DNA of 62,611 nucleotides from NCBI GenBank assembly GCA_964362125.1, contig CAYICS010000004.1:1-62611 (forward strand), written 5' to 3'. The position numbers were made by a program, and so were the translations under genes. Shown in pieces: positions 6,547 to 49,784 of the stretch. The number at the start of each line of letters is the position of its first letter. The first letter of the stretch is position 1. The DNA is from an uncultured Candidatus Saccharibacteria bacterium (lineage in GTDB: Bacteria; Patescibacteriota; Minisyncoccia; UBA6257; UBA11618). Below the pieces are notes generated by a model. It did not search any database, was not told where the DNA came from, and was given only the letters and a program-made list of their open reading frames with translations.

Positions 6547-6620
6547 AATTTTCAATGTTCAATGATCAATGATCAATTTTCAATTAAGGTACATTAAATG
6601 AAAATTGTAAATTGAAAATT
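6547..6620. repeat. Heptamer-array hairpin (TTTTCAA/TTGAAAA type)
   Basis: AATTTTCAAT...ATTGAAAATT terminal IR; same start as 47749-47872. Confidence 0.85.
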
Positions 6621-6640
6621 ATTCTGCTACCATAGGAGCC

Positions 6641-7558
6641 ATGGAGCAGCTGCTTTTAGTTTTGATAGTTATTCTTTTAGCCGCCTTAATTTTTCTAACT
6701 TTGCGCCGGAAGCCAGGAGAAACAAAGCCAGACTCATTGCTTTTACTGCAAAACCAGCTCAATGATATTCGCGGCTCGATGCATCAGGTTTTCAAAGAGG
6801 TGGCGGCCGAGCTGGTGAAGTTGGGTGAGGGCCACAAGCAGGTGGTGGGCTTTGCCGACCAACTGAAAAACCTTCAGGATATTTTAAAAAATCCCAAACA
6901 GCGGGGGATTCTGGGGGAGTATTATTTGGAGACAATGCTTAAAAATGTTCTGCCGCCCGGCCAGTATCAGCTCCAGTACGGCTTCAAAGATGGCGCCAAA
7001 GTGGATGCCGTCATTTTTGTCAAAGACAAAGTTATTCCCATTGACTCCAAATTTAGTCTGGAGAATTACCAGCGCGACGACAAAATTTTCTTTCAGGATT
7101 TAAAAATAAGAATTGATGAAACTGCCAAATATGTCCGGCCCGAAGAAAAGACTTTTGATTTTGCTTTTATGTTTATTCCAGCCGAAGCCATTTATTACGA
7201 TTTACTGGTGAACAAGGACTGGCTCAGTTACGCTTGGAACAAAAAGGTGATTGTGGTTTCGCCCAACACTTTTTATCACTCACTGCAGATTATTATGCAA
7301 GGATTGAAGGCCTTGCAGATTGAGGAGTCGGCCAAGGAAATTATTAAGCGAGTGGGAGATTTGGGTCGGCATATCGGCACTTACGAAGAATATATGAAGA
7401 AGCTGGGCAATCATCTCGGCACCAGCATCAACACTTACAACGCCGCCTATAAAGAGTTGGGGAAGATTGATAAGGATGTCTTACGGATCACCGGCCAAGC
7501 CGCCGGCATCGAGCCAGAGGCCTTGGACAAACCGCGGGAAGATGAGGAAGGGCTGTAA
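6641..7558 (+). CDS. rmuC: DNA recombination protein RmuC
   Basis: N-terminal TM, coiled coil, RGILGE..LE, VIPIDSKF, FAFMFIPAEAIY motifs. Confidence 0.92.
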   Translation: MEQLLLVLIVILLAALIFLTLRRKPGETKPDSLLLLQNQLNDIRGSMHQVFKEVAAELVKLGEGHKQVVGFADQLKNLQDILKNPKQRGILGEYYLETMLKNVLPPGQYQLQYGFKDGAKVDAVIFVKDKVIPIDSKFSLENYQRDDKIFFQDLKIRIDETAKYVRPEEKTFDFAFMFIPAEAIYYDLLVNKDWLSYAWNKKVIVVSPNTFYHSLQIIMQGLKALQIEESAKEIIKRVGDLGRHIGTYEEYMKKLGNHLGTSINTYNAAYKELGKIDKDVLRITGQAAGIEPEALDKPREDEEGL

Positions 7559-7560
7559 TG

Positions 7561-7653
7561 AAACTCAAAAGTCAAAAGTCAGAAGTCAAAACTATAAATC
7601 AAAAGTCAAAACTAACGAAAGTTTTAAGTTTTGAGTTTATGATTTAGAGCTTT
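7561..7653. repeat. Heptamer-array hairpin (AAAGTCA/TTTTGAG type)
   Basis: Tandem AAAAGTC units and an inverted arm TTTTGAGTTT, between convergent rmuC and groL. Confidence 0.75.
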
Positions 7654-7659
7654 ATAAGT

Positions 7660-7737
7660 ACCCTAAACCCCCCGCCTGCAGACGCCTGGAGCGTCAGCGA
7701 CTGGCGGGCAGGTAAACCCTATACCCTATACCCTAAA
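7660..7737. repeat. (CCCTAAA/CCCTATA)n array interrupted by the 42-bp GC element (7671-7712)
   Basis: ACCCTAAACCC[42 bp]TAAACCCTATACCCTATACCCTAAA; the 42-mer recurs at 35359, 54149 and 55735. Confidence 0.85.
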
Positions 7738-7753
7738 TTTTTTGTTTAGAGCT

Positions 7754-9385
7754 TTAGTAATCCTCCGGCGGCATCTGGGGGCCGTGTTTTTCTTCTTTCT
7801 TCGGCAATTCTGCTACCACTACTTCGGTGATGAGAAAGAGGGAGCTGATGGAGACGGCGTTTTGCAGAGCCGAGCGGGTGACTTTGGTCGGGTCAATGAT
7901 GCCGGCTTTGATTAAGTTTTCGTATTTGCCGCTGGCGGCGTTGAAACCAAAATCCTCGCTTTCCCCCAAAACTTTATTTAAGACAACCGCGCCGTTGAAG
8001 CCGGCGTTTTCAGCAATTTGTTGCAGGGGAGAATAAAGGGCTTCCAGCACAATTTTAGCCCCAACCAGATCAGCTAATTGTTCCTGAGTATAGCCCTTCA
8101 TTAAATTCTCAACCGCCCGGGCCGCCCGGATTAAAGCCACGCCTCCGCCCGGGACAACCCCTTCCTCAATAGCGGCTTTGGTGGCGGCTACCGCGTCTTC
8201 AATCCGGTGCTGTTTTTCTTTTTGTTCTATTTCTGTGGCCGCTCCCACCCGGATCACTGCCACCCCGCCGGAAAGCTTGCCGATTCGTTCCTGTATTTTC
8301 TCGCGATCAAATTCCGAATCAGTAACTTCGTATTGTTTCTTCAGCTGCAGCAGCCGTTCTTCAATCTTCTGCTTGTCGCCTTTGCCGCCCACTATTGTGG
8401 TGTTGTCTTTATTGGCAAGGACGCGGTGGGCCTGACCCAGATCAGTAATATCCACTGAGTCCAGTTTTCGTCCCACTTCTTCCGAGATAAAACTAGCGCC
8501 GCTGACAATGGCAATATCCTGCAGTATTTCTTTGCGCCGGTCGCCAAAGCCCGGCGCCTTGACTGCCAGAACATTAAAGATACCCCGCAGTTTGTTGACC
8601 ACTAAAGTGGCTAAGGCCTCGCCTTCCACATCATCGGCAATAATCACCAGCTCTTTCTTGCCGCTCTGCACCAGTTTTTCCAATAGGGGCAGAAGATCGC
8701 TGATGCTGGAAATTTTTTTGTCGGTTACCAAAATATACGGCTCTTCCAGATTGGCCTCCAGCCGTTCGGGGTTGGTGATCATATAAGGAGAGATGTAGCC
8801 GCGGTCGAACTGCAGACCCTTGACCACTTCTTTGGACAGACCAAGAGTTTGGGCTTGCTCTACTGTCACCACACCGTCTTTGCCCACCTCCTCAATAATG
8901 TCAGCGATTAACCCGCCAATTTCCGAATCGCGGGCCGAGATAGTAGCCACATGAGCGCTGTCTTCTTTGCCGCCGATGGGCCGGGAGATGCTTTTTAATT
9001 CTTCCACTGTCACTTGAGCGGCCCGTTCAATACCCCGCTTCATCGCCACCGGATCAGTGCCGGAAGCGATATTTTTCAAACCTTCGCGAATTAAAATCTG
9101 GGCTAAAAGGGTAGCGGTGGTGGTGCCGTCGCCAGCCACATCATTGGTTTTGGAAGCCACCTGTTTGATCAACTCGGCTCCTATATTTTCCACCTTATCT
9201 TCTAGTTCAATATCTTTGGCTACGGTTACGCCATCAAGAGTAATAATGGGTGAGCCATAACTTTTATCCAAAACCACCGCCCGGCCCCGCGGCCCCAAAG
9301 TCACCCGGACGGCATCGGCCAGTTTATCCACGCCCCGCTTCAGAGCCAGCCGCGCTTTTTCGTTAAATAATATCTGCTTAGCCAT
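7754..9385 (-). CDS. groL: Chaperonin GroEL
   Basis: AKQILF start, [17 protein letters not shown] motifs; 543 aa. Confidence 0.99.
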
Positions 9386-48351: not shown

Positions 48352-48373
48352 CGCGATTGGTTGCCAAACGATA

Positions 48374-48471
48374 ACCCCGCCCTCTATGCTCATGGTCAAA
48401 GTAATAATTTTTATGATGAGAGAGAATGTTAATAAGATTTAGGCGGGGGAAACGCGCTTAGAGGGCGGGGT
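48374..48471. repeat. 98-bp segment bounded by a perfect 13-bp IR
   Basis: ACCCCGCCCTCTA/TAGAGGGCGGGGT in the rpsQ-rplN spacer. Confidence 0.75.
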
Positions 48472-48495
48472 GTTCGTGATTGATTAATCACTCAC

Positions 48496-48864
48496 ATGCT
48501 ACAAGAACGATCAATTGTAAAAGTTGCTGATAATTCTGGGGCCAAGACTGTCAGGGTTTTCAGAATTCCCGGCGGCAGTAAGAAAAGATATGCCCGGCTG
48601 GGCGATCTTGTTATTGCTTCAGTGCAGGGAGCTGAGCCGCGTAAGTTGGTGAAAAAGAAAGATATTGTGAAATGTTTAGTGATTAGAAGTGCCGCCGCCA
48701 CTCGACGGAACGACGGTTCCTATGTCCGATTCGATGAAAATGCTGTGGTGTTAGTGGATGAAAAGCGCCAGCCGCGGGCTACCAGAGTCTTTGGTCCGAT
48801 TCCCAGAGAAATTAAAGAGAAAGGGTTTGATGGGGTTTTTTCGCTAGCCGAAGAAATTGTTTAA
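48496..48864 (+). CDS. rplN: 50S ribosomal protein L14
   Basis: VADNSGAK, RFDENAVV, TRVFGPIPRE. Confidence 0.99.
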   Translation: MLQERSIVKVADNSGAKTVRVFRIPGGSKKRYARLGDLVIASVQGAEPRKLVKKKDIVKCLVIRSAAATRRNDGSYVRFDENAVVLVDEKRQPRATRVFGPIPREIKEKGFDGVFSLAEEIV

Positions 48865-48917
48865 CAGCGACACTAATGCGCACACCAATACACACGAATG
48901 ACGCGAATATTAAAAAT

Positions 48918-49202
48918 ATGAAAATAAAAAAAGGCGACACAGTGCAAATAATGGTTGGTGAAGAGGCGGGTAAAAAGGGTAAGGTATTAAAGGTATACCC
49001 GGAAGGCAATAAGATATTGATTGAAGGATTAAATTTGTATAAAAAACACAAAAAGCCGCGGCGCCAGGGAGAAAAGGGAGAAATCGTCAGTGTGCCCCGG
49101 CCTTTGAGTGCAGCCAACATCGCTTTATTTTGCAGTAACTGCGGCAAAGGGATGCGAGTTAATAAAAAAAGAATTTGTCAAAAATGCAAAACAGCGCTTT
49201 AG
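48918..49202 (+). CDS. rplX: 50S ribosomal protein L24
   Basis: KIKKGDTV...GKKGKV, NIAL. Confidence 0.97.
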   Translation: MKIKKGDTVQIMVGEEAGKKGKVLKVYPEGNKILIEGLNLYKKHKKPRRQGEKGEIVSVPRPLSAANIALFCSNCGKGMRVNKKRICQKCKTAL

Positions 49203-49663
49203 AAAAAATAGTTATCAATAGCGGGGTGGGGCGGTTATCACAGCAGGCGAATTTTGAAGAAAAAATTTTGCCGGAGTTGATGAGAGACTTTGCTTTAATT
49301 ACCGGTCAGAAACCAGCCGCCAGGCAGGCGCGGCAGTCTATTGCCGGTTTTAAATTGCGGGCCGGCACAGTGGTCGGTTTGAAGGTTACTTTGCGGGGCC
49401 GGCGGATGCAGGAATTTTTAGAGAGGTTGTCTAAAGTGGCTTTGGCCCGGGTTCGGGACTTTCGCGGCGTTGATTTGAAAAATGTTGATAAAAATGGTAA
49501 TCTAACCATTGGTATTAAAGAACACACGGTCTTTCCCGAAGTGTCTCCAGAAACCTCCCGCTATGATTTTGGTTTGGAAGTGACGATGGTGCCTAAAGTT
49601 AAAGGACGGGAGAAAGCTATAGAGCTTTATCGGGAACTGGGGATACCGCTAAAGAAATCCTAA
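49175..49663 (+). CDS. rplE: 50S ribosomal protein L5 (N-terminally short)
   Basis: LEKIVINSGVG, ITGQKP, RVRDFRG. Confidence 0.97.
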   Translation: MSKMQNSALEKIVINSGVGRLSQQANFEEKILPELMRDFALITGQKPAARQARQSIAGFKLRAGTVVGLKVTLRGRRMQEFLERLSKVALARVRDFRGVDLKNVDKNGNLTIGIKEHTVFPEVSPETSRYDFGLEVTMVPKVKGREKAIELYRELGIPLKKS

Positions 49664-49784
49664 ACTCTAAATTCTAAACCATAAATCCTAAACAAATCCC
49701 AATGACACAAATCCCAAATTCCAAACTGTTTGTGATTTATGATTTAAAATTTAGATATTGTTTAGAGTTTAGAGTTTAGGATTT
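49655..49784. repeat. Heptamer-array hairpin (CTCTAAA/TTTAGAG type)
   Basis: 17-bp terminal IR AAATCCTAAACTCTAAA/TTTAGAGTTTAGGATTT; supplies the rplE stop. Confidence 0.88.

Follow-up and report, generated by a model that had tools for sequence, protein, structure and literature searches.

The stretch of DNA analysed here (CAYICS010000004.1, 62,611 nt; hereafter the window) represents contig C4 in the genome assembly of an ultra-small bacterium (618 kb in 24 contigs, 97% complete). The nearest named relatives of this bacterium are found among Patescibacteria, e.g. Candidatus Harrisonbacteria. It contains six hairpins made of arrays of 7-nt units, with loops of 0-70 nt that hold no open reading frame (ORF). 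These hairpins probably belong, as gene-less members, to a family of small palindromic cassettes whose full form carries the gene for an intervening-sequence protein (IVP). In a full cassette, a PF05635 gene of about 120 codons is placed between a left arm and its inverted counterpart, the arm having about five units of 7 nt, or sometimes 8 nt. This build is that of ORF-bearing intervening sequences (IVSs) of 23S rRNA, here situated between protein genes.

The hairpins, together with three half-arms, had been picked out by a model that saw the letters of the DNA and a list of its ORFs (the sequence-only reading), and all of them were located (Table 1). Two of the half-arms (9387-9417 and 26905-26932) are single arrays; the third (7660-7737) is a split direct array, not half a hairpin. 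The design proposed to be shared by these elements, i.e. arm, spacer and inverted arm with a 7-nt period and many different units, was borne out. Period-8 hairpins, single arms lying in frame in conserved genes and gene-holding versions of the hairpins had been missed. The period-8 hairpins form a sister family (GTATCGATGC...ACGAATNN...GCATCGATAC) that fills six further junctions of the window.

Hairpins and IVP cassettes share a common architecture. In the genome, inverted array pairs lying 150-500 nt apart enclose small ORFs that belong to PF05635 (23S-rRNA-IVP/S23p, a bAvd-like four-helix bundle). All four PF05635 genes or remnants of the genome are framed by inverted heptamer arrays starting at most 2 nt from the stop codon of the neighbour. 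Their arm units are AGCTTTT on contig C5 (gene at 39175-39534), AATTTTC on C23 (gene at 2129-2500), AAAGTTN on C1 and AGGTTNT in a decayed copy in the window (15358-15580, Table 1); three of the four are also abundant array families in this genome. In design, arms of the C23 cassette agree with the empty hairpins at 6547 and 47749. The latter hairpin, built of a 34-nt outer module and an inner arm, matches IVP-bearing cassettes on C23 and in two other genomes (G101, G349), all of which have AATTTTC-type arms including the inner arm. Stems of the hairpins measure about 30-40 bp.

The association with IVP genes is also observed across the phylum. In other Patescibacteria, flanking inverted repeats scoring at least 30 were detected for 19/33 and 15/20 IVP genes in two sets (34/53), as against 0/53 in a reversed-sequence control. 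Arms of these cassettes comprise about five units of 7 or 8 nt, and nearly every cassette has a unit of its own. Of 401 Patescibacteria sampled, 49 have the AATTTTC module. It is equally frequent on both strands, the reversed control pattern gave almost no matches, and members of distant families share the hairpin of about 125 nt that it forms. Of the 401 genomes, 225 have IVP genes, namely 47 of 49 module carriers versus 178 of 352 non-carriers. The sequence-only reading had held that the elements did not arise by copying of one element. This is contradicted by the module, which together with its inner arm is present 25 times in this genome, and by an arm of CCCTAAA units that recurs inside about ten genes (see below).

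Beyond the phylum, a tblastn search against plasmids retrieved IVP genes mainly from Nostoc, Calothrix, Anabaena and relatives. In cyanobacterial and Gemmatimonadota plasmids, seven of eight IVP genes examined are flanked by heptamer or octamer arrays. IVPs of Calothrix and Pseudanabaena are 43-47% identical to the C5 protein and carry the same AGCTTTT/AAAAGCT unit. The plasmid loci often lie between cas genes of one operon: in Pseudanabaena, Picosynechococcus and Anabaena plasmids (L136, L137, L139), IVP genes occur in CRISPR operons at cas6/cas4, at cas10/cmr3 and before cas4, again with heptamer or octamer arrays on their flanks.

Further, we examined abundance and anatomy of the arrays. 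Tandem Repeats Finder detected 198 period-7 arrays genome-wide versus 17.6 in third-order Markov shuffles. In intergenic DNA the numbers are 88 versus 1.0 for period 7 (88-fold) and 38 versus 2.1 for period 8, while arrays of other periods exceed shuffles 4-15-fold. Lack of a period-7 excess, the outcome by which the sequence-only reading would have been refuted, is clearly not what is seen. Seventy different units occur within this one genome. Unlike those of period-9 arrays, their lengths do not fall off from the detection limit; the mode is at 30-35 nt (76 of 198 arrays), i.e. about five heptads. Variation is found in the middle units and conservation in the outer ones, both in the AATTTTC module (AATTTTC-AATNNNC-AATNNNC-AATTTTC-AATTAA) and in the CCCTAAA arm (CCCTAAA-CCCTAAA-CGCTAAA-CCCTATA-CCCTAAA). 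Within a unit, mismatches are concentrated in 2-3 positions, so that a conserved core can be told from a variable spacer (p about 1e-4 to 1e-6). Partners found within 250 nt of an array are inverted in 24-32 of 146 cases and direct in 4-9 of 146. Because variable positions of the two arms are not complementary, stems show regular 2-nt internal loops every 7 nt.

These properties bear on the simplest alternative, according to which the arrays are plain simple-sequence repeats produced by polymerase slippage that favours 7 nt, the inverted arm being made by fold-back copying and the link with IVP being incidental. In many bacteria, no other long repeats are as over-represented as heptamers, and slippage has been proposed for them (Mrazek 2007, to the extent that it is cited in PMC4679880 and PMC4692102); their copy number differs among Coxiella strains (PMC4990558). 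The seventy units of this genome, concerted unit changes at orthologous sites and perfect arrays in sister species where those of the window are degenerate or absent would also suit such a process. Since open-ended slippage does not predict a length mode at about five units, and since a variable centre between conserved edges is the reverse of its outcome, we regard this explanation as improbable. Clustering of mismatches, the 34-nt module, conserved together with its inner arm in 49 genomes from many families, the identical or near-identical CCCTAAA arm in about ten genes and the strong association with IVP genes argue against it as well. The sequence-only reading had named slippage, or reiterative templated synthesis, as a common generator of the arrays. 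This is partly borne out. Perfect arrays and concerted unit changes in sister species agree with some slippage, and the length mode and the variable centre speak against an open-ended copy number; some remodelling of arrays in place is seen, whereas defined elements have been copied. As to templated synthesis, no candidate reverse transcriptase is available: the 97%-complete genome has no PF00078 match. Reverse-transcriptase or telomerase-like synthesis was rejected on this ground, and a diversity-generating retroelement, the setting of bAvd, is likewise not indicated, as it would need a reverse transcriptase with a pair of template and variable repeats.

Elements are gained and lost at orthologous junctions. 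The comparison was based on metagenome contigs of sister species (L061, L140, L141, L143), about 73-84% identical to the window. At rplP/rpmC, the window has a 132-nt AATTTTC hairpin, L140 a 123-nt frame of a GIY-YIG cassette without its gene, L141 an 88-nt heptamer hairpin with the unit CAAAACT, and L143 an empty spacer of 7 nt. The rpsC/rplP junction holds a period-8 hairpin in the window and in L140, a GC-rich hairpin in L141 and nothing in L143; at rpsN/rpsH, L141 again has a GC-rich hairpin where the window has a period-8 one. The rplE/rpsN spacer is 130 nt long in the window and 2 nt, i.e. empty, in L141. The rplV/rpsC spacer measures 40 nt in the window and 4 nt in both L140 and L141, where the TAGGGTT array is absent. 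Finally, 115 nt separate gatC and gatA in the window, and the two genes overlap (TGATG) in L061. Since the same junctions are empty or hold other elements in sister species, the hairpins are insertions. The set of whole genomes contained none of the same genus; among family members, about 75-82% identical in L16, a few have period-7 arrays in the same operon and most have none. One such genome (G003) has heptamer arrays of another unit at the same rplC/rplD and rplP/rpmC junctions, the rplC/rplD copy being a hairpin.

Array units are also remodelled in place. At the 3' end of rpsS, an array of about 30 nt provides the stop codon and reaches the rplV ATG in three species, with the units AAACCCT, AAATCTT and TAATTCC/TAATGTC, respectively. 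At one site of ligA, identical codon positions are taken up by AAAATGG units in the window and by AAAGCGA units in L061, with no difference in length. At another, L061 has a perfect (TTGGAAA)x4.3 array, and the window sequence is not repetitive and matches it at 11 of 18 positions. Concerted change of units without change of length would be the expected outcome of slippage, or of conversion, within an array.

Between genes, elements of the family fill the space from stop to start codon. Arrays occur in 68 of 447 co-directional and 11 of 84 convergent spacers, and in 4 of 80 divergent spacers, which bear promoters. The median co-directional spacer is 105-126 nt long with arrays and 16-20 nt long without them. 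The median distance of an array from the stop codon is about 3 nt, 20 of 68 arrays overlap the stop, and in roughly half of the cases no more than about 10 nt separate the array from the next start; the hairpins end 4-20 nt before it. The claim that hairpins begin at stop codons thus holds, with starts from -9 to +3 nt, and arrays do provide the stops of rplE, groS, rpsS and a permease gene (19854-19856). Closeness to the stop, and to the next start, is explained by the size of the elements: they measure about 100 nt and are placed in spacers that would otherwise have about 20 nt, the ribosome-binding site being left free. TAA-rich units can take over the upstream stop. In the rplE/rpsN hairpin, the outermost stem is formed by the native 3' end of rplE pairing with the right end of the element (49655-49664 with 49775-49784). 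This native end is AAATCCTAAA, conserved in sister species; the arm unit of the hairpin resembles the sequence of the insertion site.

Such positions might suggest that the hairpins are cis-acting RNA elements selected by the host for mRNA stability, processing or translational coupling, like repetitive extragenic palindromes (REPs) or RNase III sites of phage T7, and not selfish DNA. Their preference for sites downstream of stops and rarity in divergent spacers, the short distance to the next start and the presence of an RNase III gene in the genome are in line with this. Several hairpins fold very stably as RNA: z-scores are -6.1 for 19855-19979, -8.0 for 47749-47872 and -9.2 for 49655-49784, with 0 of 200 shuffles as good; folding is moderate for 6547-6620 (-2.2), 7561-7653 (-2.5) and 38060-38187 (-2.8). 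We nevertheless find this explanation hardly likely, since no function specific to a junction is conserved: in sister species the same junction is empty or taken by another heptamer hairpin, a GC-rich hairpin or a GIY-YIG frame, and most relatives within the family have no such arrays in the same operon. Further, single arms occur within coding sequences, and the variable arm positions are non-complementary, with no sign of compensatory change. Nor do the hairpins, which are found within ribosomal-protein operons, resemble intrinsic terminators; a GC-rich stem followed by a T run is missing, and a terminator scan flagged only the small central stem 47803-47818. Rfam families detected in the window are three tRNAs only, with no rRNA, and provide no identity for the hairpins.

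Single arms inside genes deserve separate description. Those in conserved genes are in frame and about 32 nt long. The CCCTAAA arm is translated as LNPKPYTLNP in about ten ORFs, including at least seven identifiable conserved enzymes. Besides murD, we take these from their translations to be an Ile/Val-tRNA-synthetase-like gene, secA, asparagine synthase, nifS/iscS, a glycosyltransferase and ksgA. In coding copies, the reading frame always meets the TAA of the unit at one interrupted unit, CCCTAYA, which encodes Tyr. The likeness of CCCTAAA to a telomeric repeat was dismissed as coincidence, as this is one of 70 unit families, its units are interrupted and the arms are located inside genes. 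Compared with the nearest array-less orthologues, the murD arm causes no difference in length and the nifS/iscS arm one of -3 to +4 residues. In the alignments, several coding arms thus replace native codons and are not simply added to them. Palindromic elements of Rickettsia are reportedly selfish as well, lie in frame in essential genes and are tolerated in surface loops; these are said to be palindromes of 100-150 bp inserted whole, whereas here a single arm of about 33 nt is found, in several cases replacing codons with little or no net change in length.

The CCCTAAA arm of murD in L061 is itself split in frame, at CCCTA^TA, by a perfect 69-nt hairpin (L061 1101-1175) with a 19-bp stem and an inner GC stem, possibly with duplication of TA. 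In the window, a GC-rich hairpin (7669-7716, CCCCGCCTGC...GGCGGGCAGG) is nested in the ACCCTAA array in the same manner. Both recall the small dispersed repeats (SDRs) of Nostoc, which are reportedly very small palindromic inserts nested in heptamer arrays; SDRs are said to be inserts, not arrays, and not to have been linked with IVP.

Presence and absence at junctions would also be expected of ordinary elements resembling MITEs (miniature transposable elements with inverted repeats) or REPs, moved by a transposase encoded elsewhere (of RAYT/IS200 type, or a small GIY-YIG nuclease), with IVP as a frequent passenger. The hairpins are indeed palindromic and dispersed and have terminal inverted repeats. 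The genome encodes five small GIY-YIG genes, and their own inverted-repeat frame occurs gene-less at rplP/rpmC in L140, which means that a second type of cassette also leaves gene-less frames at the same junctions. GIY-YIG nucleases were nevertheless rejected as partners of the arrays, as their frame (CCCGTTAGAGACA) is a different, non-periodic inverted repeat. The gene-bearing form of the heptamer elements encodes a four-helix-bundle protein, not a known transposase, and related IVPs keep similar units across phyla, which is more readily understood if protein and repeat are partners than if IVP is a passenger. With no target duplication at the junctions compared, and no transposase seen beside the 61 IVP cassettes examined (though no systematic search was made), we consider movement by a transposase encoded elsewhere very improbable.

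Several points weigh against the interpretation of the hairpins as gene-less IVP cassettes. Target-site duplications, absent from gatC/gatA, rplE/rpsN and rplP/rpmC, are missing for this model too, and no recombinase or transposase was found, including beside the 61 cassettes, in a search that was not systematic. A recognisable IVP remnant is lacking in all six hairpins, and in this assembly no copy of the CCCTAAA, TCTAATG or AAAGTCA families bears an IVP gene. Alternatively, hairpins might come first and IVP genes insert into them. The association between module and IVP (odds ratio 23, p = 6e-11) was calculated ignoring phylogeny and genome size, the cross-phylum sample comprises eight loci, and Nostocales are rich in heptamer arrays in any case. 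Replacement of codons by coding arms, where the net change ranges from slightly negative to +33 nt and is about zero in several cases, is not accounted for by the cassette model. Outside the window genes checked with Pfam, gene calls were simple longest-ORF calls; in the window, Pfam confirmed rplC/rplD, rpsS/rplV/rpsC/rplP/rpmC, rplE/rpsN, rpsL/rpsG, groS/groL, rmuC and the two permease genes as neighbours of the elements. Finally, 0 of 20 tested IVP loci from other Patescibacteria lie in rRNA. As IVP loci are found at junctions of protein genes and not in rRNA, the elements do not belong to IVSs in the strict sense. Of the rRNA operon of this genome, the assembly contains only the 3' end of 16S, at the end of contig C5.

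If the hairpins derive from IVP cassettes, their history may be envisaged as follows. The elements would spread as DNA, and insertions would persist only where harmless, which in a compact genome means at junctions between stop and start. Gene-less hairpins would arise from full cassettes by loss of the gene, by analogy with the origin of MITEs from transposons, and the decayed copy at 15358-15580 may represent an intermediate of this loss. In transcripts, the stem of 30-40 bp would presumably be cut by RNase III, as happens in rRNA IVSs and at intercistronic sites of phage T7; such cutting would allow insertions inside operons to be tolerated. Units would then be homogenised and changed in place by slippage or conversion within arrays.

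A further proposal, which we put forward tentatively and hold to be rather doubtful, is that the 7-nt period and the arm of about five units are the footprint of IVP itself, a homopentameric ring that would read five heptads of its own flanking arrays. Each subunit would then read a conserved core of about 4 nt plus a variable spacer of about 3 nt. Rings of HutP and TRAP read spaced triplets and offer an analogue. The two solved relatives (2GSC and 2RLD) have five chains each, and the Xanthomonas homologue is a toroidal homopentamer (cited in PMC4990558). Arms of about five units, clustered mismatches and similar units of related IVPs across phyla are hints in the same direction. Similarity of units shows a weak trend with IVP identity (mean unit distance 2.5 at identities of at least 55%, versus about 3.5), which cannot separate co-inheritance from specific recognition. 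Were the proposal correct, every IVP lineage and the unit belonging to it would co-evolve, and this would account for a fixed period with free sequence. The heptamer repeats seen in many bacteria would come from a single cross-phylum cassette family, as its arms or as arms left orphaned, taking in cyanobacterial short tandemly repeated repetitive sequences (STRRs), the Coxiella IVS repeats and possibly Xanthomonas arrays, and rRNA IVSs would be copies of the family that landed in rRNA.

Among known systems, 23S rRNA IVSs of Coxiella burnetii, Leptospira and Xanthomonas (PMC4990558) are alike in having 430-450 nt with terminal inverted repeats, a stem of about 30 bp, an IVP gene in the loop, tandem heptamers of variable copy number in the stem region and a patchy distribution. 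The Coxiella IVS, 428-444 nt long, is located in helix 45 of 23S rRNA and has a 28-bp terminal stem, in which RNase III cuts, an S23p (PF05635) ORF and two to three tandem heptamers (GACAGAT), strain-variable in number (PMC4990558). Elements of the window likewise have long-stem terminal inverted repeats and stem heptamers; a PF05635 gene in the loop is lacking in the six hairpins and present in full cassettes elsewhere in the genome. Short ORF-less IVSs are known from Salmonella and Yersinia. Unlike IVSs, the elements described here lie between protein genes, or inside them as single arms, and not in helix 25/45, and they number dozens per genome with many units.

STRRs and long heptanucleotide repeats (Mazel 1990 and Mrazek 2007, as far as they are cited in PMC4692102 and PMC4679880) are also intergenic tandem 7-nt units, with several families per genome and some copies in inverted pairs; in these accounts their origin and function are unexplained, and they figure as simple repeats without a partner gene. 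The excess of tandem 7-nt units over chance is common to them and to our genome, and STRR-like arrays flank IVP genes in the sampled cyanobacterial plasmids. What sets our elements apart is the size of about five units, pairing into hairpins and arms in common with IVP cassettes. TAACTGA repeats of Beggiatoaceae, cyanobacteria and Bacteroidetes (MacGregor 2015, PMC4679880) are similarly placed just upstream of starts, including those in ribosomal-protein operons, and overlap upstream stops because their unit carries stops in all frames; a few are inside ORFs, and few Shine-Dalgarno sites are nearby. In contrast to our elements, they have a single unit, with 169 direct sets versus one inverted, and neither hairpin nor gene was reported.

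We found no paper describing such hairpins in Patescibacteria, nor one in which IVP genes are connected with heptamer arrays in general. By the present data, the 7-base repeats of bacteria, for long unexplained, look tied to one protein family. Three puzzles may share one answer: nature and origin of rRNA IVSs, the bacterial preference for heptamers (STRRs, known since 1990) and the role of PF05635/bAvd-like proteins. In a genome of 0.6 Mb, an element family outside rRNA fills junctions of essential operons, provides stop codons and places in-frame arms in murD, ligA, secA and other core genes. This is of consequence for annotation, as in these genomes repeats can be the source of stop codons and, in conserved proteins, of C-terminal tails and 11-residue loop segments.

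Table 1. Arrays, hairpins and related repeats (window coordinates unless a contig is given)
Element	Position	Strand	Context
Gene-less hairpin, AATTTTC family	6547-6620		3 nt past TAG of ORF 5578-6543; 20 nt before rmuC ATG
Gene-less hairpin, unit AAAGTCA	7561-7653		2 nt after rmuC stop; convergent spacer with groL
Direct array, ACCCTAA/ACCCTAT	7660-7737	+	split by GC-rich hairpin insert at about 7669-7716
Single array, GATTTAT	9387-9417	-	fills groS/groL spacer; groS stop is array TAA (- strand, 9405-9407)
Decayed IVP cassette	15358-15580	+	left arm begins 2 nt after stop of ORF 13922-15355
Decayed cassette, left arm	15358-15387		AGGTTNT units
Decayed cassette, gene remnant	15391-15546		51 aa, C-terminal third of IVP gene; PF05635 E 0.0018
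Decayed cassette, inverted right arm	15551-15580		CTACAAC units
Gene-less hairpin, unit TCTAATG/TAATTTC	19855-19979		between two branched-chain permease genes; provides upstream TAA; ends 6 nt before next ATG
Single array, ACCTTTGATATTTG x2.2	26904-26934	+	occupies entire rpsL/rpsG spacer
Period-8 hairpin, GTATCGATGC...ACGAATNN arms	27404-27517		rpsG/fusA
GTTTAAA array in well-supported ORF (presumably protein-L-isoaspartate O-methyltransferase-like)	32504-32536	+	in frame, VESLKFKVKNL
Gene-less hairpin, AATTTTC/AATATCC type	38060-38187		rplC/rplD
Period-8 hairpin, GTATCGATGC...ACGAATNN family	42509-42608		
AAACCCT array	45979-46003	+	rpsS 3' end and stop; extends to rplV start
TAGGGTT array, inverse of 45979-46003	46505-46541	+	provides rplV stop; fills rplV/rpsC
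Period-8 hairpin	47223-47314		rpsC/rplP
Gene-less hairpin, AATTTTC family	47749-47872		rplP/rpmC; 34-nt outer module and inner arm
Gene-less hairpin, unit CTCTAAA/AAATCCT	49655-49784		rplE/rpsN; provides rplE stop
Period-8 hairpin	49980-50093		rpsN/rpsH
Period-8 hairpin, GTATCGATGC...ACGAATNN family	51055-51176		
AATTTCC arm in ligA	58138-58167	+	in frame; window 33 nt longer than L061 here
AAAATGG array in ligA	58343-58361	+	in frame; L061 has (GAAAAGC)x4.4 at those codons, no length change
Period-8 hairpin	58893-59007		exactly between gatC stop and gatA ATG
CCCTAAA arm in murD	62189-62223	-	in frame, LNPKPYTLNP; also in L061; not in the next relative, whose protein is equally long
Repeat of about 150 nt	C3:14413-15693		codons 83-132
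Repeat of about 150 nt	C7:2302-2457		
Repeat of about 150 nt	C3:18994-19206		
Repeat of about 150 nt	C5:47163-47306		

Other repeated elements were noticed at the same kinds of site. A GIY-YIG mini-cassette is present in the window at 52338-52624, framed by CCCGTTAGAGACA...TGTCTCTAACGGG, and the same frame without the gene lies at 2185-2307 of L140. GC-rich hairpins with CCCCGCCCTCTA...TAGAGGGCGGGG arms make up a third class of junction elements, found in L141 at 2611-2750 (rpsC/rplP) and 5014-5147 (rpsN/rpsH) and in the window at 48368-48477 (rpsQ/rplN). The ligA/gatC spacer, 4 nt long in the window, contains a GC-rich insert of 224 nt in L061 (4478-4701) with a folding energy of -100 kcal/mol.

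The repeat of about 150 nt listed in Table 1 has inverted ends of 42 nt and at least seven dispersed copies in the genome, one of them in the window (53914-54113). One copy lies in frame in a cysteine desulfurase gene, to which it adds about 50 residues not present in most orthologues. Finally, in the region 11789-12261 of the window, tRNA-Ser(GGA) is directly followed by three perfect 24-nt units (11875-11946) and then by a small GIY-YIG ORF (11968-12261).

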